Positions 2,964 to 25,600 of a stretch of 56,180 nucleotides of DNA are shown piece after piece. The first letter of the stretch is position 1. Each line of letters starts with the position of its first letter. Under the pieces are notes generated by a model, which did no database searches, was not told the DNA's origin, and worked only from the letters and a program-made list of their open reading frames with translations. Position numbers and translations under genes: made by a program. This DNA is from Asaia bogorensis. GTDB taxonomy: Bacteria; Pseudomonadota; Alphaproteobacteria; SHVZ01. The stretch is from positions 1 through 56,180 of the forward strand of contig CAMDFP010000002.1 in NCBI GenBank assembly GCA_945897335.1. The letters run 5' to 3'.

Positions 2964-4289
2964 ATGAGCCGCGCCGCGACCCTGCCGCCGGGCCCGCGCG
3001 GCACCCTCGCCTCGCTGGCGCGCTTCGCGCGAGATCCCGTCGCCACCCATGCCGATTGGGCGGCACGCTACGGCGACCCGTTCACGCAGCCGATGCCGGG
3101 CTTCCCCATGGTCGTAACCGGCCGACCCGATGTCATACGCCGGGTGCTGACGCTGCCGCCGGAGGCCTTCGGCGTCATCGATGCCGGCACCGAAGTGATG
3201 GGGCGCTTCTCTCTGATCCGCCTCGATGGCGCCCAGCACCAGGCGGTGCGCCGACAGGTCGGCCCGCTGGTGATGGACCCATTGCGCCACGGCAACGGCC
3301 AGGCGATCCAGGAGATCGCCCGGCGCCACTTCGCCGCTGCTGCCGGACAGCCGTCCGCGCCGGCGATCGGGCTGACCAAGCGGCTGACCCTGGAGGTCAT
3401 CCTGCGCAGCGTGCTCGCTTTGGCGGACGCCGCCACCCTGGACCGCTTCGCCGCCGCGTATGGCGCCTTGCAGTCGAAAGCGAGCTTCCTGCTGCATTTC
3501 GTGCCGGCGCTGCAGATCGATCTCGGGCCGTGGAGTCCGTGGGGCCGCATCAAGCGGGCGCGACAGCAGGTCGACACGATCATCGCCGCAGCGATCGAGG
3601 CCGCCGGGGCCGCGACGGACCCGTCCGGCCCGCTTGCTCCGATCGCCCGGGCCGCGGCCGAGGCATCCGACCCGGTTCTCGGCATCGAGTCTCTCCGCCA
3701 CCAGGTGTTCACCCTGCTGTCGGCCGGCCATGCCTCGACGGCGCAGGCGCTCGCCTGGGCGGTGCATCATGGCTGGAGCGACGGCACCATCCTGGCGCGG
3801 CTGCGGGCCGAGCTGGATCCGATGACACCGAACTTGGACCCGGGTCAGGTGATCCGCCTCCCCTATCTCGATGCCTTCTGCCGCGAGGTGCTTCGCCTCC
3901 GTCCGATCGGCCCGATGATCGGGCGCAAGCTGAACCAGCCGATCGAGATCGGCGGATGGTCGCTTCCGGCCGGGACCGTGATCGGCCTCTCCGTCTCCCT
4001 GGCGCACCGCGCTCCGACGGGATTCGCGAAACCCGACACCTTCCGGCCCGAGCGCTTCCTCGAAGGCCGCGAAGCCCAGGCCCACGCCATCCCGTTCGGC
4101 GGCGGCGTGCGCCACTGCCTCGGCGCCAACCTGGCTCTCACCGTGATGAAGCTGGCCCTGGCCGAGCTGATCGCCGGTTACGACGTGACCCTGCTCGACC
4201 GCCGCCCGCCCCAGCATCGCCTGATCGACGCCGTAGCCGGCCCGGCCGGCGGCGTGATGGCACGCATCACGCCGCGGAAAGCCGCTTAA
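2964..4289 (+). CDS. Cytochrome P450 monooxygenase (copy 2, atypical I-helix)
   Basis: Starts MSRAATLPPGPRG at ATG 2964 (alternative ATG 2937). ExxR (FCREVLRLRP) and heme loop FGGGVRHCLGANLA with the Cys codon at 4116-4118. The I-helix reads SAGHASTAQ, so the usual acid-alcohol pair (E/D-T) is Ala-Ser (3732-3737). Confidence 0.88.
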   Translation: MSRAATLPPGPRGTLASLARFARDPVATHADWAARYGDPFTQPMPGFPMVVTGRPDVIRRVLTLPPEAFGVIDAGTEVMGRFSLIRLDGAQHQAVRRQVGPLVMDPLRHGNGQAIQEIARRHFAAAAGQPSAPAIGLTKRLTLEVILRSVLALADAATLDRFAAAYGALQSKASFLLHFVPALQIDLGPWSPWGRIKRARQQVDTIIAAAIEAAGAATDPSGPLAPIARAAAEASDPVLGIESLRHQVFTLLSAGHASTAQALAWAVHHGWSDGTILARLRAELDPMTPNLDPGQVIRLPYLDAFCREVLRLRPIGPMIGRKLNQPIEIGGWSLPAGTVIGLSVSLAHRAPTGFAKPDTFRPERFLEGREAQAHAIPFGGGVRHCLGANLALTVMKLALAELIAGYDVTLLDRRPPQHRLIDAVAGPAGGVMARITPRKAA

Positions 4290-5110
4290 GCCTCCATCGG
4301 CAGGATTCGGCGGAGGCCGTAGTCGACCGCTCGTGTCCGCGCCGCCCTCTCGCGCGGATAGCCCAGCGACACTTCCTGGAACCGCACGCCGTCATAGGTC
4401 TCGCTCACCGGGATGTGCAGATGGCCATAGACGGCACACACCGCCCGATAGCGTCGATGCCAGTCCGCCGTATGGCGAGTGCCGCACCAGAGGCTGAATT
4501 CCTGATACCACAGGCGGCCGACCGGGCTGGGATGCAAGGGCCAGTGCGAGATCAGGACGGTCCGCGTTCCATCCGGCAAGGCGACCAGGCGGCCAACGCT
4601 GTAGTCGAGGCGCGCCGCGCACCAGGACTCCCGGTTGGGATAGGGATCAGCGGGCAGCAACGTCTCGTCGCTGCACATCACCCGCGAGACGGCCATGGCC
4701 TGGTCCTTCGTCAACCCTTCCGGCCGCATCGTGTAATCGTAGAGAAGGAACAACGGCGCGACGGCGATGTCTCCCGCCGGGTCCCGCCACAGCGGATAGG
4801 GATCTTCCGGGGTCAGCACGTCGATCTCGCGGCAACGTTCGACCAGGTGCAGATACCGGTCCTGGCCGCGTCGCTCGCTCTCTCCCGTGTGCCAGAGGTC
4901 GTGATTGCCCGGCGCGAACATCACCTTGGCGAAGCGGTCCCGCATCCGGCCGAGGAAGCCGATGATGTCGTCCTGCCGATGCGCGACATCGCCGGCAACA
5001 GCCAGCCAATCTTCCGGGCCGTCGGGCTGGAACGCGTCGGCGATCTCGCGATTCTCACGGTAGTTCAGATGCACGTCGCTGATGGCGAAAAGCCTGGGAC
5101 CGAACTCCAC
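4286..5110 (-). CDS. Calcineurin-like metallophosphoesterase
   Basis: 274 aa with a GTG start at 5110. All metallophosphoesterase motifs are present: SDVH (DxH), AGDV (GD), GNHDLW (GNHD/E), SHWP (H) and GHLHIP (GHxH). It is the last gene of the minus-strand operon. Confidence 0.85.
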   Translation of the reverse strand: MEFGPRLFAISDVHLNYRENREIADAFQPDGPEDWLAVAGDVAHRQDDIIGFLGRMRDRFAKVMFAPGNHDLWHTGESERRGQDRYLHLVERCREIDVLTPEDPYPLWRDPAGDIAVAPLFLLYDYTMRPEGLTKDQAMAVSRVMCSDETLLPADPYPNRESWCAARLDYSVGRLVALPDGTRTVLISHWPLHPSPVGRLWYQEFSLWCGTRHTADWHRRYRAVCAVYGHLHIPVSETYDGVRFQEVSLGYPRERAARTRAVDYGLRRILPMEA

Positions 5111-5118
5111 GTTTTGCG

Positions 5119-5123
5119 TCTCC
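5119..5123 (-). promoter_or_regulatory. Shine-Dalgarno-like site for the metallophosphoesterase gene
   Basis: The minus strand reads GGAGAC-gcaaaac-GTG, so GGAGA sits about 7-8 nt upstream of the GTG at 5110. Confidence 0.5.
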
Positions 5124-5135
5124 GATCGTTCGCCG

Positions 5136-5369
5136 TCAATCCTCCAGGTGCCCTTTCAGCAGAGCCAGAAGATCGCCAACCGTCCTCACCTTTTCCATGG
5201 CGACGCCGCTCAGCTTCACGCCCCAGGTATCGGCGACCGCGCCGCGGAACTCGGAGCTGGCCAGCGAATCCCACTCGCCCAGTCCGATCAGGACCTGATC
5301 GTCCGTCGTCGTGCCCGGCTCGAGGCGCGCCAGGTCTTCGACGATGGCCAGGATCTCTTTGCGTTTCAT
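5136..5369 (-). CDS. Free-standing acyl carrier protein
   Basis: 77 aa. The phosphopantetheine attachment motif is GLGEWDSLASSEF (DSL). Size and helix pattern fit a discrete carrier protein. Confidence 0.85.
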   Translation of the reverse strand: MKRKEILAIVEDLARLEPGTTTDDQVLIGLGEWDSLASSEFRGAVADTWGVKLSGVAMEKVRTVGDLLALLKGHLED

Positions 5370-5375
5370 TGTCCG

Positions 5376-5381
5376 CTCCCC
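5376..5381 (-). promoter_or_regulatory. Shine-Dalgarno-like site for the free-standing ACP gene
   Basis: The minus strand reads TGA-GGGGAG-cggaca-ATG, in the 12-nt gap between the C-domain stop (5382) and the ACP start (5369). Confidence 0.55.
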
Positions 5382-6713
5382 TCAGATCTCGATGCCGTCG
5401 GCAATCGCCGCAAGAAAGCGCTCAACGTCAACGGCGGGATAATCGTCGATGTAGTACGACATCGTCAGCGTCACGGCCCGGCCATACTCAGATGCAACCA
5501 CCAGCACCAAAGGCAGGGACAGCGGCATCGCGCAGAGCGTCACGGCGCTCGGGGACGATTCCGCGAAGCGGACGCGCCGCTCCGAGACATGCCCGACATT
5601 GGTGAAAGTCGGCGGGGCCGGTTTGTTCAACCCCTTTTCCATCAGGCGATCGAGAGTCCGGCGCTTGCGCGCATAGGTCATCGCAGAAAACATCTTGGCG
5701 GCGAACGGATTGGCCGCCCCCATGAAGGATCCGCGATGACGCGCCATCTCGCGCGAGACGCGGTCGAGCGTGTCGCTGAAGCGCTCGCCGAGGTCCGGCT
5801 CGACATAGACATTGGCGATGCCGCCGAGATTGCAGATCGCCGGCCGACTCTCCACCTCCGCATAGCGGCGCATGTTGATCGGCATGACGATTTGCAACGG
5901 CCGGCCCGGGTCGCCGCGACAGAACGCCATGAAGGCCCGCGCATATCCGGCGAGCAGCATGTCGTTGCGCGACAGCCCGCGTATCTTGGCGGCGGCATCG
6001 ATCTCAGCTAGACGTTCGGCCGGAATCTGCACTCTGGCGAGGGCCGGGCGCGTGCGCGCCGCTGCGGCGAATGCAGAACGACTCCGCAGGAAGCCTTCGT
6101 GACGGCGCAGCATGCGCGGCAACTCGCCGAGGTCACGCAACAGCACCTTAAGCTTGTCCTTCAGGCTGAAATCGGCAAGCCAGCGGAAGCTGTCGCGCGA
6201 GGCAGTGTTGGTCGGCAGCCGAAAATCCGGGTCCGCGGCAATGCCGCTGTACAACGCCGCGAAACGCTCCAACGCCAGGATCAGGGCGCCGCCGTCCGCC
6301 ACGACATGGGAAACTCCCAGGATCAGCCGGTCGCCGCCGCGATGGCGCAACAGTTGCACCGTCACGTTGCGGCTGCGCATGGCGTCGAACGCCGCACCGA
6401 CCATCTTCGTGGTTTCGCCCTCGACGTCCTCGACATCGTCGAGCATGACGAAGCCTGGAACGTCATCGAGGTCGTCGCGGCGACGCCACACCGGCACCGC
6501 GCCGCTGTCGTCGAATCGGCAGCCGAGCACGGGCTCGGCATCGAGTAATCGCCGTGTCGCCTGCCGGACGACGCTCGCGTCCAGGGGTGAGACGAAGTCG
6601 AGTACCATGTAGACATAGCTGGTGGTGTCGTAGCTGGCGAAGATCTGCACCATCTGGTCCTGGAACTCGGCGGCGATGGTGTCGGGTTCTGTGGCCGTCA
6701 TCGATTGCCCCAT
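5382..6713 (-). CDS. Stand-alone condensation-domain-like acyltransferase (HxxxDG family: NRPS C / PapA5 / WS-DGAT type)
   Basis: 443 aa. The catalytic motif SHVVADGGAL has His at 6306-6308 and Asp at 6294-6296, at the position expected for HHxxxDG about 135 aa from the N-terminus. No A, T or other domains are present. An alternative start at ATG 6701 would form an ATGA overlap with the ECH2 stop. Confidence 0.75.
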   Translation of the reverse strand: MGQSMTATEPDTIAAEFQDQMVQIFASYDTTSYVYMVLDFVSPLDASVVRQATRRLLDAEPVLGCRFDDSGAVPVWRRRDDLDDVPGFVMLDDVEDVEGETTKMVGAAFDAMRSRNVTVQLLRHRGGDRLILGVSHVVADGGALILALERFAALYSGIAADPDFRLPTNTASRDSFRWLADFSLKDKLKVLLRDLGELPRMLRRHEGFLRSRSAFAAAARTRPALARVQIPAERLAEIDAAAKIRGLSRNDMLLAGYARAFMAFCRGDPGRPLQIVMPINMRRYAEVESRPAICNLGGIANVYVEPDLGERFSDTLDRVSREMARHRGSFMGAANPFAAKMFSAMTYARKRRTLDRLMEKGLNKPAPPTFTNVGHVSERRVRFAESSPSAVTLCAMPLSLPLVLVVASEYGRAVTLTMSYYIDDYPAVDVERFLAAIADGIEI

Positions 6714-7447
6714 CGGTCGCGGATGCGTGCCTGCACATCGGCATCTGCGAAGGTCACATCATGCATCGCCGCCTCGGCTTCGACCGCGGCCGGCAGCCGC
6801 TCCTTCAGCCCGCGAGTCAGCTGCGCCTTCAACAGCCGCAACGCCGCCGCCGGCTTGTCGGCCAGCTCCCGAGCGAGTCCGAGGGCCGCATCGACCACAC
6901 CGTCGCGCGGCACCACCGGGAAGGGCAGCCCGCGCTTCTCCAGCGCGCCGCCGTGATAGCTCCTGGCGCTCATCAGCATCTCCGATGCCAGCGCCGGCCC
7001 GAGCTTCTCCGGCAATAGCAGCGTCGAGCCCATTCCAGGAGTGAAACCGTACTTCATGAAGTTGGCGGAATAGAGCGCCTCGCGAGCCAGAACCACCATA
7101 TCAGCGTAGAGCCCGAACACCAGCCCGCCGCCCAGTGCGTGCCCCTGCATGGCGCTGATCACCGGCACCGGGCAGTCCAGCAACAGGCGATAGAAGCCCG
7201 CCTCGTCGAAGCGCGTGCGGCGTTCGGCGATTCCGATCAATTCTTCGATCGTGCCGCCGGCCAGGAAGATGCTGTCGAAGCCGTGCAGAACCACGGCGCG
7301 GGCCTCGGCGTCGGCGGCGATCTCAGCCATGGCATCGAACAGGCCGCCGACGAGCGCGCGCGTGAAGGTATTGCGGCCTTCGCGGTCCTCCATGGCCACG
7401 ACCCAGATGCCGTCGGCCTGTCGCGTGCGTCTTACGACTTCCGCCAC
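6698..7447 (-). CDS. Enoyl-CoA hydratase/isomerase-family decarboxylase (ECH2, PksI/CurF-ECH2-like) of the beta-branching cassette
   Basis: The crotonase fold begins at VVRRTRQADGIWVVAMEDREGRNTF... and contains MQGHALGGGLVFGLYAD. A GTG at 7447 is preceded by GGGAGGAGGG. The 383-aa ORF in the track (to 7849) is an upstream extension running through the ECH1 gene. Confidence 0.85.
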   Translation of the reverse strand: MAEVVRRTRQADGIWVVAMEDREGRNTFTRALVGGLFDAMAEIAADAEARAVVLHGFDSIFLAGGTIEELIGIAERRTRFDEAGFYRLLLDCPVPVISAMQGHALGGGLVFGLYADMVVLAREALYSANFMKYGFTPGMGSTLLLPEKLGPALASEMLMSARSYHGGALEKRGLPFPVVPRDGVVDAALGLARELADKPAAALRLLKAQLTRGLKERLPAAVEAEAAMHDVTFADADVQARIRDRWGNR

Positions 7448-8211
7448 GGCAACCCTCCTCCCTCGAGGAAGCGGCGGATACCTGTCATCACGCCTGGATC
7501 GGCGATGCGGGCGCAGATGAGATCGAGCGCACGTCGTTCCATCCCGGCATCGATCGGCGCCAGGTCGCGGAAATAGGCCTTGGCCGCAGCCACCGCACCG
7601 GGATCCATGCGATCGACCTTGATCAGCACGCGGCGAAGCGCGTCGTCCAGGTCCGGGGCAACCTCGTCGACCAAGCCGATCGCGCGCGCCTCGGTGGCGT
7701 CGATGCGCTGGGCGGTCAGCGTCAGCCGCCACGCCGCCTGCCAGCCGGTACGACGGACCAGGAAGGGCGCGATCGTCGCCGGCACCAGACCGAACAGCAG
7801 CTCGGTCAGGATGAAGCCGGTGCGCGGGGAGGCGAAGACCAGATCGCACGCCGCCGCCAGGCCGAGACCGCCGGCGCTGACCCGGCCGTCGACCGCGGCG
7901 ATGACCGTCTTGTCCACCTGTCCGAGCCGCATCAGCAACCGCCAGAACGGTGCGATGCGATCCTCGAGGTCGCCCGGCGTCGAAACCTCGGTGGCCGTCG
8001 CCTCGGCGAAATCCATGCCGTCGCAGAACACGCCGTCGCGACCGCGGATCACCAGGACGCGCAGGCCGTCATCCGCTTCCAGCGTGTCCAGCGCGTCGTT
8101 GAGCGCGACGATGAGCGCCGCGTTCAGCGTGTTGCCGGCGGCGGGACGCGCCAGCTCGGCGGTCAGCAGCGAGCCGCGGCGCGACAGGATGACGGGCGGG
8201 TTCAGCTCCAT
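7432..8211 (-). CDS. Enoyl-CoA hydratase-family dehydratase (ECH1, PksH/CurE-like) of the beta-branching cassette
   Basis: 259 aa. Crotonase-family sequence (LRVLVIRGRDGVFCDGMDF, AAVDGRVSAGGLGLAAACD), positioned between the HCS and ECH2 genes as in known HCS cassettes. Confidence 0.85.
   Translation of the reverse strand: MELNPPVILSRRGSLLTAELARPAAGNTLNAALIVALNDALDTLEADDGLRVLVIRGRDGVFCDGMDFAEATATEVSTPGDLEDRIAPFWRLLMRLGQVDKTVIAAVDGRVSAGGLGLAAACDLVFASPRTGFILTELLFGLVPATIAPFLVRRTGWQAAWRLTLTAQRIDATEARAIGLVDEVAPDLDDALRRVLIKVDRMDPGAVAAAKAYFRDLAPIDAGMERRALDLICARIADPGVMTGIRRFLEGGGLPWRKS
7453..7462 (-). promoter_or_regulatory. Strong Shine-Dalgarno site for ECH2 (inside the 3' end of ECH1)
   Basis: The minus strand reads GGGAGGAGGG-ttgcc-GTG(7447). 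Confidence 0.6.
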
Positions 8212-22600: not shown

Positions 22601-25600
22601 GCCGCCACCCCCTCGCCCTTGACGTAGCCGTCGGCACCTGCGTCGAACACCCGGCAGCGGCCGTCGGACGACGCGACGCCGAGACGCTTCACGGTCTCCT
22701 CTGCATCGGGGCTGAGCATGAGGCTGACGCCGCCGGCGACCGCGATCTCCGCCTCGCCATGGCGCAGCGCCAGGACGGCACGATGCACCGCGACCAGGCT
22801 GCCGGAACACGCGGTGTCGACCGCCTCGCTCGGGCCGCGGAGATCGAACAGCCAGGAGATCCGGTTGGGCAGCAGGGCCGCGATGTTGCCGAGAGCCATC
22901 TGCGCCCGTGCCGTCTCGTCGAACGGCACCAGGGCGGCGTATTCATTGACTTGGCTCGCGAAGAACACGCCGACCCGCCGGCCGGCCAGCCCCGTGACAT
23001 CGATCCCGGCGCTCTCGAAGGCGTTCCAGGTAGCCTCCACGACGAGCCGATGCTGCGGGTCCATGAGCTGGGCATCGCGCACGGAGATGCCGAAGAAGGC
23101 ATTGTCGAACCGATCCACGCCGTCGAGATAACCGCCGCGGCCGCCACGCCTTCCGGTGATCGTCACGCGATCCTCCGGCATCGCGCCGACGAGGTCATGA
23201 CCCGACTCCAGATGGCGCCAGAACGCGTCGACATCCGGCGCGCCGGGGAAGCGGCCGGCCATGCCGATAATGGCGATCGCACGATCGTCACCCGACAGGC
23301 GCCGTTCTTGCGGGGCGGGCGCAGCCGCCGGCGCCGTGACAGATGGGGGCACGATGGTCGGCGGTGGGGCTGCCGCCGGCGGTGCTGCGCCGCCGATGCC
23401 GTGCTCGGCCGCGAGATAGTCCGCCAGCCGGGTGATGGTGCCGTGGGCGAAGAAGGCCGCCGGCGACACCGTCACGCCCCAGCGCTCGGAGATCTGCACG
23501 GCGAAGTCCTTGAGCGCGATCGAGTCGAAGCCGAAATCTGCGAGGTTGGCGTCGACCGGCAGCCGCTCGGCCGGCAGCTTCATCAGCGCCGCCACCATCG
23601 CCACCAGCAGCGGCACCACCTCGGTGCCGCTGGACGACGCGGGTGTCGCGGGCACTGGCCGCGGCGGCTCGCTCGCGCGTTCCGTCAACATCGCCCGGGC
23701 CGCATCGGCATCGGTGGGGAAAACGGCAACCTGGGCGTCGCCCGAGGCGACGGCAGCGTCGAGAAGATCGAGCGCCTCGCCGCTGGCGAGCGGTCGCAGC
23801 CCCGACGCAGCGCTGAACAAGGCGGTACCCTCGCTCGACATCACCTGACGTCCCTCGGCCCAGAGCGGCCAGTCGACCGCGACCGTGCGCCCCTGCCGTC
23901 GGCCAGCCAGCCGCTCGGCCTCGCGCCAGATGGCGAAGCGGTCGGCAAATGCGTTGGCCGCGGCGTAGTCGCACTGGCCGAAGTCGCCGAGCTCCGAGGC
24001 CAGCGAGGCGAAGGCGACGAAGAGCTGGAGCGGTCGATCGCCGATCGCAGCATCCAGCGCCGCGAGGCCACCAGCCTTGGCGCGCATGACCGCGAGCATG
24101 TCGTCCCAGCGCTTCTCGCTGACGATGCCCTGGCCCGGCACGCCGGCGAGATGGAAGACGGCCGCAAGCGCATCGAACCTTGCTTCGGCGGCCACCAATA
24201 CCGAGGCGAGCTGTTCGATCTCCGCGACATCGGCCCGCCAATAGCCCGCCTTGCCGCCCGCCGCCTCGACGGCGGCGATGGTCGCCGCCACCGCCTCGCC
24301 CGGAACCGAACGGCCGACCAGCGCGATGCGGGCGCCATGGCGCCTGGCCAAGCGGACAGCGAGCGCGCGGGCCAGCACCCCGCCACCGCCCGTGATGAGG
24401 CAAGGAGCGCCATCGGTCAGCGGCAGCGGCGATGCCGCTGCTATCACCGGCTCCAGCACACGCCGCAGCCGCTCGCCGTCGGCCAGGCGGATCTCGCGCG
24501 GGCCGGCAACGCCGAGCGACAACTCCCGGACGATCGCCGGGCCGGCCTCGGGCGCGATCGCAGCGACCTCCAAGGCGCGCACATGGGCGCGTCCGCCGAA
24601 GAACGCGATCGACCGGCCGAACGCCACCAGCGCCGCATCCGACGGCGCACCGACATGCACCACGAGCACGGGCACGGCCGGCCCCTTGGCCCGAAGCACG
24701 GTGCGGACGGCATCGAGCAACGCCTCGCCCGTCCTTCCGCTTGCCAGCACGACCACAGCGGTGGCACCTGGATCGACGGCATCGACGACACCGTCGCCGC
24801 CGGCCGACCGCCACGCCGCCTCCAGCGCCCGGGTCATCGCCGGCGTTCCGCCGACCACGGCAAGCGTACCCGCCGCCATCGCCGGCGCAGGAGCTGGAGC
24901 CGGGCGCCAACGCGGTGCCATCAGGGTTGCGGGGTCGGCGGTGCGAACCTCGACCGCCCTCGCGATCGGTACGCCCGCGTCCTTTATGTCGATCCAGTAC
25001 GGCGACAACTCGAATGGATAGGCAGGCACCGAGACGCGCCGGCCACCGGCGCCGATGTCGTCGAGATCGATGGTCTCACCGTCCCGGTAGCGGGCGGCGA
25101 GCGCTTCCAGCCGCGTCCATGCCGGATCGGACGATCCATTCAACGGCGTACCGGTGAGCGCACGTTTGAGATCTGCGATCGTGCCGACCACCACGGCCCA
25201 GCGCCGCTCGAACTGGGTGCGGCCCGCGGCAAGCGTGCGTGCAAGGTCGTCGAGCCGAGGCTCCGTCCCCTCGAGATGGGCGGCGAGGTCAGCCATGCGC
25301 CGGGCCAGCGCCGTCGGGGTCTTGGCCGACACCAGGATGAGCTGCGGACCCGCCGCGTCTACTCGCTCGACCGCCGCGGCCTCCTCGATCACGATGTGGC
25401 AATTGGTGCCGCTGAAGCCAAAGGAGCTGACGGCGGCCGAGCGCGGCTGGCCTTGCGCCGATCGCCACGGCTCCAGGGTCGTCGGAACGCGGAACGGCGT
25501 CTCGCCCAGGCGAAGCCTCGGATTCTCGGCGCGGAAGTGCAGCGAGGGATGGATCTCGCCATCCCTGACCGCCAGCACCGCCTTGATGAAACCGCCGATT

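Follow-up and report, generated by a model that had tools for sequence, protein, structure and literature searches.

We analysed a 56,180-nucleotide stretch of Asaia bogorensis DNA (assembly GCA_945897335.1, contig CAMDFP010000002.1, positions 1 to 56,180; hereafter the window), in which a trans-acyltransferase (trans-AT) polyketide synthase (PKS) operon ends in three genes: a stand-alone condensation-like (C-like) enzyme, a discrete acyl carrier protein (ACP) and a metallophosphoesterase. The trio is best explained as an ACP-dependent tailoring module joined by a recruited phosphopantetheine (Ppant) hydrolase that would service its carriers, an explanation that we hold with about even confidence. 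The family assignments, the synteny, a single insertion of the hydrolase gene and the retention of all three families in reduced genomes are established. The features on which the argument turns are the following:

5382-6713, minus strand: gene for the PtzR-type stand-alone condensation-superfamily (C-like) enzyme, 443 amino acids (aa) as called
5136-5369, minus strand: discrete ACP gene, 77 aa, Pfam PP-binding
4286-5110, minus strand: PptH-type phosphopantetheinyl hydrolase gene, 274 aa, GTG start
5370-5381, minus strand: spacer between the C-like and ACP genes, 12 nt, with a Shine-Dalgarno-like (SD-like) GGGGAG at 5381-5376
5111-5135, minus strand: spacer between the ACP and PptH-type genes, 25 nt, with GGAG at 5120-5123
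6698-7450, minus strand: ECH2 of the HMGS cassette, NCBIfam PRK07110 at 315 bits
6288-6311, minus strand: catalytic motif of the C-like enzyme, S135-H-V-V-A-D-G-G142, read from the sequence

The trio lies downstream of ECH2, whose stop codon is at 6698-6700. An earlier sequence-only reading of this DNA had described three co-directional genes behind ECH2, separated by 12 and 25 nt and each preceded by an SD-like site, and had quoted the motifs SHVVADGG and GEWDSLASSEF and five metallophosphoesterase motifs. We recovered all of these, the genes at the positions given and the motifs in the translations. Homology confirms that the three open reading frames are real genes and not chance frames: matches to the C-like protein reach E 7e-278, the ACP scores 26.5 bits against a cut-off of 20.8 for Pfam PP-binding, and the phosphoesterase scores 50.8 bits against a cut-off of 21.5 for Pfam Metallophos. 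The closest homologues of the C-like protein are 435-439 aa long and begin at the second Met of the window protein, so its true start is probably the ATG at 6701, which would give 439 aa and an ATGA overlap with the ECH2 stop. The 25-nt spacer is too short for a promoter, and the PptH-type gene would therefore be co-transcribed with the ACP gene. At its 3' end the operon is convergent with a P450 gene.

The phosphoesterase has a single strong solved relative, PptH of Mycobacterium tuberculosis (Rv2795c, PDB 6UNC), which phmmer matched at E 4e-82 over residues 5-271. Foldseek placed the structural model (mean pLDDT 94.4) on 6UNC along the full-length fold, with E 2.5e-34, a TM score of 0.93, a root-mean-square deviation (rmsd) of 1.7 Å and 48% identity. 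All metal motifs are common to both proteins, and DxH, GD, GNHD, H189 and GHLH were invariant across 32 homologues. Judged by sequence and modelled fold, the protein is a PptH-type phosphopantetheinyl hydrolase, its activity being predicted. A cyclic nucleotide phosphodiesterase (the JGI label is 'CpdA') and a small-molecule phosphatase were both rejected as candidates; Rv0805, GpdQ, PAP and LpxH all gave TM scores of 0.5 or less. PptH acts on holo-carrier proteins, and the window gene lies directly behind an ACP gene; unlike PptH, the window copy is alphaproteobacterial and sits inside a trans-AT PKS operon. The M. tuberculosis enzyme strips Ppant, including Ppant with a bulky label, off AcpM, the Pks13 ACP and foreign ACPs and peptidyl carrier proteins (PCPs), and requires Mn and Fe (PMC8557913). 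It was described there as limited to mycobacteria, broad in specificity and without an assigned physiological role (PMC8557913). By our searches the family is far from mycobacteria-limited: at least 6833 of the candidates scored are matches, and identity is 52-58% in actinomycetes such as Streptomyces and Rhodococcus and 65-84% in alphaproteobacteria. Among the roles that the sequence-only reading had offered for this gene, action on the Ppant arm fits membership of the PptH-type family; processing of a phosphorylated acceptor finds no support in a close relative of a carrier-protein Ppant hydrolase. PptH-type homologues were also seen in Amycolatopsis and in Acetobacteraceae (P0045-P0164).

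We compared the position of the PptH-type gene across related clusters. It lies between the ACP gene and the P450 operon in the window and in loci L001, L002, L080, L089 and L090, 10-25 nt past the ACP gene or overlapping it, and keeps this slot down to 63% C-like identity. The six embedded copies make up a single clade (SH-aLRT 99-100) within a set of alphaproteobacterial copies that stand alone. The phylogeny shows that the gene was inserted once, into the subclade with at least 63% C-like identity. The trio had been presented as a unit; as such it is not universal, since PptH is embedded in that subclade only, and clusters L003, L081 and L082 are without the gene. Searches of 9 congeners and 30 other relatives, all lacking the cluster, found neither the PptH-type nor the C-like gene; thus the PptH-type gene travels with the cluster. 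The window's genome and that of Azospirillum sp. B4 each have it as a single copy. In support of a link, the PptH type is rare in a sample of alphaproteobacterial genomes (10/401), and these 10 include 3/3 with the C-like gene. The trio was not found in any genome without a PKS. Two further metagenome-assembled genomes (MAGs) with C-like homologues have a PptH-type gene elsewhere in the genome, and the PptH-type genes of genomes G412 and G413 are not beside cluster genes. Two of the clusters without a PptH-type gene each carry an ABC1/APH-type kinase gene (L081:1424-3220 and L091:11375-12184); no such gene is present in the cluster of the window.

The C-like enzyme and the discrete ACP had been put forward as a pair, and the pair is conserved inside trans-AT PKS clusters. 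The ACP carries its Ppant-attachment residue at Ser35 (codon 5265-5267), within a WDSL signature and with Phe at Ser+6, and W33, D34, S35, L36 and F41 are invariant across nine ACP orthologues. A 77-80-aa ACP was encoded next to the C-like gene, or one gene from it, in 10/10 related PKS loci examined (the window, L001, L002, L003, L080, L081, L082, L089, L090 and L091); in L082 the order is C-like-P450-ACP. The pairing extends over wide distances. C-like identity to the window protein is 99% in L001, 80% in L089, 69% in L090, 68% in L080 and 63% in Azospirillum sp. B4, and falls to 52% in L091, 50% in a Rhodospirillaceae MAG, 41% in Methylomagnum ishizawai and 38% in L082. Twelve Bacillota loci with distant C-like homologues (~25% identity) have a 72-aa 'EWDS' ACP nearby. 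Comparative evidence of this kind makes the discrete ACP a conserved, dedicated partner of the C-like enzyme, and the two together a widespread two-gene module of a PtzR-type enzyme and a WDS-type ACP. A predicted complex of the two proteins scored 0.54, against 0.02 for the best control; at least 92% of contacts agreed between runs, and the partner pLDDT was at least 81. The mark used for such scores was passed by 58/80 solved complexes and 2/110 mismatched pairs, and passing scores of 0.60 or less were given by 7/80 solved complexes and by both mismatched pairs. The prediction weakly supports binding, and PCP-C complexes have already been solved, so the pass may reflect memory. In Desulfosporosinus sp. 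BG (L060:3600-11500) the 'EWDS' ACP is accompanied by a KAS III, a short-chain dehydrogenase/reductase (SDR), a second C-like protein, an APH-type kinase and a 4HBT hotdog protein; this small cluster and the 11 others in Bacillota may represent an undescribed lipid or small-metabolite pathway.

We wondered which known pathway the cluster resembles. The window holds a trans-AT PKS cluster with four PKS genes, the last of which ends KS-ER-ACP-TE-ACP (TE, thioesterase, at residues ~6031-6286). It also encodes a discrete SDR and the KS0-HMGS-ECH1-ECH2 cassette, followed by the trio; a trans-ER and two P450s are on the opposite strand. The published patellazole (ptz) list contains four PKSs, two ECHs, a KS, an HMGS, two P450s, a 'DCR' SDR, an ER and a stand-alone C gene, ptzR, of 1326 bp (PMC3851785, Table 5). 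The accessory set of the window (KS0, HMGS, two ECHs, two P450s, SDR, trans-ER) and the sizes of its four PKSs match this list. In an even sample of 401 alphaproteobacterial genomes, whose members are related to one another so that counts are not independent, the C-like protein occurred in three: the window's genome and two single-contig genomes of 1,518,636 and 1,481,191 bp (G295 and G410). The genomes of Candidatus Endolissoclinum faulkneri L5 and L2 measure 1.51 and 1.48 Mb (PMC3851785), and by size and gene lengths G295 and G410 are presumably these two. Both encode a 441-aa C-like homologue, 38% identical to the window protein over its full length (E 1e-101), behind an ECH2 of 70% identity, and both keep the 4-nt start/stop overlap between the two genes (L095:8819-10890, minus strand). 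The pair appears to be ptzG-ptzR, and the window C-like enzyme, which likewise follows ECH2 with a 4-nt overlap, appears to be the PtzR orthologue. PtzR was not recovered among the 150 best representatives by composition, nor by cluster names; it was found in the class-wide genome sample. The reduced genomes are otherwise scrambled, and their other cassette genes are not near the ECH2/C-like pair.

The reduced genomes also retain the other two families of the trio, as follows (further entries in L097 and L100):

L101:6364-6597, minus strand: discrete-ACP orthologue of the reduced genomes
L099:6423-7247, plus strand: PptH-type gene of the reduced genomes

The ACP orthologue is 49-52% identical to the window ACP (E 1e-27), keeps WDSL and the Phe, and lies 1.2 kb upstream of a PKS gene. 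The PptH-type gene is intact, encodes 274 aa and is 42% identical to that of the window. Between the two strains dN/dS is 0.06 for the ACP gene, and it is 0.094 for the PptH-type gene; both genes are therefore under purifying selection. Neither is on the published ptz list (PMC3851785, Table 5). In contrast to the window, the reduced genomes have these two genes elsewhere and not in a trio.

Taken together, these results suggest that the trio is the tail of a patellazole-like trans-AT PKS operon. The C-like enzyme would act on a substrate held as a thioester on the discrete ACP and move a short acyl group from it to a hydroxyl or amine of the polyketide. We propose such a transfer, as a tailoring step and not as release, tentatively and with somewhat less than even confidence. 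The PptH-type protein, as a binuclear metallophosphodiesterase, would hydrolyse the Ser-O-phosphodiester and so take the (acyl-)phosphopantetheine arm off carrier proteins. It may have been recruited once to reset or regulate the carriers of the cluster, the first of them the ACP encoded 25 nt upstream, and would then serve as a proofreading counterpart to a type II thioesterase. Which acyl group is carried, its acceptor and the carrier on which the PptH-type protein acts are inferred. As carrier-resetting analogues we propose AcpH, an HD-family ACP phosphodiesterase, and type II thioesterases; their folds are unrelated, and type II thioesterases attack the thioester, whereas the PptH type would cleave the phosphodiester. 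AcpH (PF04336) was not found in the window's genome (G000) or in G001, G002, G003 and G295.

The C-like enzyme certainly belongs to the condensation (CAT-fold, HxxxD) superfamily. A model built by AF2 from 38 homologues (pLDDT 94) matched CDA-C1 (E 1e-21), PapA5 (2.6e-20), ObiF1, SgcC5 and Tri3 in Foldseek, and VIA-align gave Z 24-34 across ~390-415 residues, which corresponds to a two-lobed CAT-like fold. H136 and D140 are invariant in the 38 homologues; a Ser takes the place of the first His in the canonical HHxxxDG. The protein scores 16.0 bits for Pfam Condensation (PF00668; gathering threshold 30.6), 18.8 for PapA_C (cut-off 30) and 22.6 for the NCBIfam WS/DGAT model TIGR02946 (cut-off 310). 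With all three scores below threshold, membership among canonical C domains, PapA5 or WS/DGAT was ruled out, and the protein thus represents a divergent clade. The wider C-like family comprises 1148 representatives at E <=1e-3 and 159 loci in species genomes. Heimdallarchaeota MAGs carry C-like homologues annotated 'condensation domain-containing protein' (L014, L017; P0225).

The C-like protein might instead be non-condensing, in the manner of AzeD or of epimerization (E) domains, and dehydrate, epimerise or isomerise an ACP-bound or free substrate with no acyl transfer. AzeD (8S6L) was the best structural match in VIA-align (Z 34.2, rmsd 3.5, 415 residues), some 5 Z units ahead of the runner-up, CDA-C1 (Z 29.4), and the best solved relatives in a profile search were the E domains of PvdL, TycA and GrsA. 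AzeD is, like the window enzyme, a discrete protein in which the first His of HHxxxDG is replaced, by Pro in AzeD and by Ser here. AzeD acts as a dehydratase and was the protein on which a 'C_standalone' clade was founded; roughly a third of that clade has first-His-type changes, and roughly a third is encoded close to PKS or nonribosomal peptide synthetase genes (bioRxiv 10.64898/2026.07.17.738954). In both the aze cluster and that of the window, a stand-alone C protein is found together with a P450 and a discrete SDR. Against this, AzeD is only 13% identical to the window protein and, though the top structural match, came tenth by profile (E 6.6e-8), behind the E domains. AzeD works without a dedicated carrier on a free bicyclic carbamate, which it dehydrates, whereas the C-like family keeps its ACP partner over wide distances. 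We therefore consider a non-condensing enzyme rather unlikely, although it is the alternative that survives best. The ester- or amide-forming acyl transfer of the sequence-only reading stands in part: the carrier pairing is borne out, and the chemistry is not assured with a non-condensing dehydratase as the closest solved relative.

Several observations weigh against a tailoring module serviced by a recruited hydrolase. On the enzyme side, the nearest solved structure dehydrates without condensing and the best profile matches are epimerization domains; the cluster has a TE, and the window contains no acceptor-biosynthesis genes and no acyl-loading enzyme for the discrete ACP. On the hydrolase side, M. 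tuberculosis PptH is broad in specificity, and most PptH homologues, including some of 66-70% identity, stand alone in unrelated neighbourhoods. Cluster L091 has an identical layout without the PptH-type gene, in the L003 genome the gene is on a different contig, no PptH-type gene was found in genome G411, and in Methylomagnum, which has the C-like/ACP pair, neither a PptH-type nor an AcpH-type gene was found. The idea that the host supplies a hydrolase where the cluster has none was rejected, Methylomagnum without AcpH being at least one exception. In the tree, the PptH-type copies from the reduced genomes fall together with the L003 genome's copy, which lies outside the cluster; a cluster-free genome of the same family also has the gene, and the reduced-genome copies may therefore be vertically inherited. 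Finally, the sampled genomes are related to one another, which tempers the counts of co-occurrence.

Some of these observations would be expected if the PptH-type gene were a passenger, that is, a general Ppant/CoA turnover gene captured between the ACP gene and the P450 operon, carried along with the island and without a specific role in the pathway. The family has more than 6800 matches, mostly stand-alone, related clusters do without the gene at the same position, and the broadly specific M. tuberculosis PptH has no known phenotype. However, the gene has kept its slot while C-like identity between clusters has dropped to 63%, the embedded copies group in one well-supported clade, the 39 cluster-free relatives yielded no copy, and a PptH-type gene is under purifying selection in symbiont-like genomes of ~770 genes. 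We judge a mere passenger unlikely. The opposite extreme is an obligate partner of PtzR and its ACP, which would clear the discrete ACP, and perhaps other carriers of the cluster, of acyl-phosphopantetheine that is a dead end or a product; so strict a dependence seems to us decidedly doubtful.

The discrete ACP lies beside a beta-branching cassette, and its place in that chemistry had to be considered. Like the donor ACPs CurB and AcpK, it is small, discrete and encoded alongside an HMGS cassette. Unlike theirs, the CurB-like carrier of this cluster is fused behind the TE of the last PKS:

10678-10920, minus strand: carrier domain fused behind the TE of the last PKS, best solved match CurB

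This domain matched CurB (5KP6/5KP7) best among solved structures, at E 6e-7. For the discrete ACP no CurB match was found at E up to 1, and its best matches were AcpM-type. The beta-branching donor is probably the fused domain, judging by these matches; the discrete ACP would thus be free for another role, and we rejected it as the cassette donor. It might still be a beta-branching carrier of another kind, holding a branched short acyl unit built by the HMGS cassette, or serving as a second acetyl donor, with the ECH2-coupled C-like enzyme passing the unit on. Ser+6, where the discrete ACP has an invariant Phe, is a position that we take to be the 'Trp-flag' of beta-branching ACPs. No carrier domain in the window, module ACPs included, has Trp there. 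In virginiamycin beta-branching ACPs, Phe occupies the 'Trp-flag' position (PMC10006238). The order KS0-HMGS-ECH1-ECH2-C-like-ACP is conserved in alpha- and gammaproteobacteria, and the ECH2/C-like overlap has outlasted the scrambling of the reduced genomes. On the other hand, a hydrophobic residue at Ser+6 is common among ACPs, there is no free condensing KS to make acetoacetyl-ACP, L082 has its C-like-P450-ACP arrangement without a cassette inside 10 kb, and as an acceptor the module with its four tandem ACPs would be more typical. A beta-branching carrier is, on balance, quite improbable. An aromatic residue (Phe) at Ser+6 was seen among the window carriers only in the discrete ACP and in one ACP of the last PKS (23398-23622, minus strand, residues 2075-2149).

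The weakest alternative, an enacyloxin-like pair that off-loads the finished chain while the phosphoesterase processes a phosphorylated acceptor or precursor, has the enacyloxin arrangement of stand-alone C protein and stand-alone carrier in its favour and is very improbable because the last PKS carries a TE, the window contains no kinase gene and no acceptor-biosynthesis genes, and the phosphoesterase is closely related over its full length to a carrier-protein Ppant hydrolase and not to a small-molecule phosphatase. Bamb_5915/Bamb_5917 (enacyloxin) and SgcC5/SgcC2 (C-1027) are ester-forming pairs of a free-standing C enzyme and a carrier. They resemble the window pair in joining a discrete C-fold enzyme to a discrete carrier, and SgcC5 is among its fold matches. 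They differ from it in that here a TE is present, no acceptor pathway is visible and kinship in sequence is at superfamily level only, so that the enacyloxin-type release suggested by the sequence-only reading is a weak analogy.

Elsewhere in the window's genome, a 12-kb contig carries a single gene for a 3564-aa hybrid KS-KR-MT-ACP-KS...C-A-PCP protein (L088, G000 contig C141, 1305-11999, minus strand). A gene of this size adjoins the trans-ER in L080, L089 and L090. The 3564-aa gene is probably the missing thiazole-forming part of the cluster, split off by assembly breaks and an insertion sequence (IS) element at the start of the window.

Stand-alone C enzymes with carrier partners are already known, as is PptH itself. 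In the literature searched we found no description of a PptH-type hydrolase inside a PKS operon, of PptH-type retention in genomes like that of the patellazole producer, or of a conserved ACP partner of PtzR-type enzymes, and the term 'phosphopantetheinyl hydrolase' led only to M. tuberculosis studies. The patellazole-type pathway gains two apparently overlooked components, the partner ACP and the PptH-type gene. For decades the known Ppant hydrolases AcpH and PptH have lacked a physiological role, and the trio offers a natural setting in which to ask for one; Azospirillum sp. B4 is a culturable host where the role of PptH is testable. If the PptH-type protein were indeed an obligate partner of PtzR and its ACP, a polyketide assembly line would have a proofreading or release step at the level of the phosphodiester. 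This would be the first physiological role for the PptH family and would explain its retention in a symbiont of ~770 genes.

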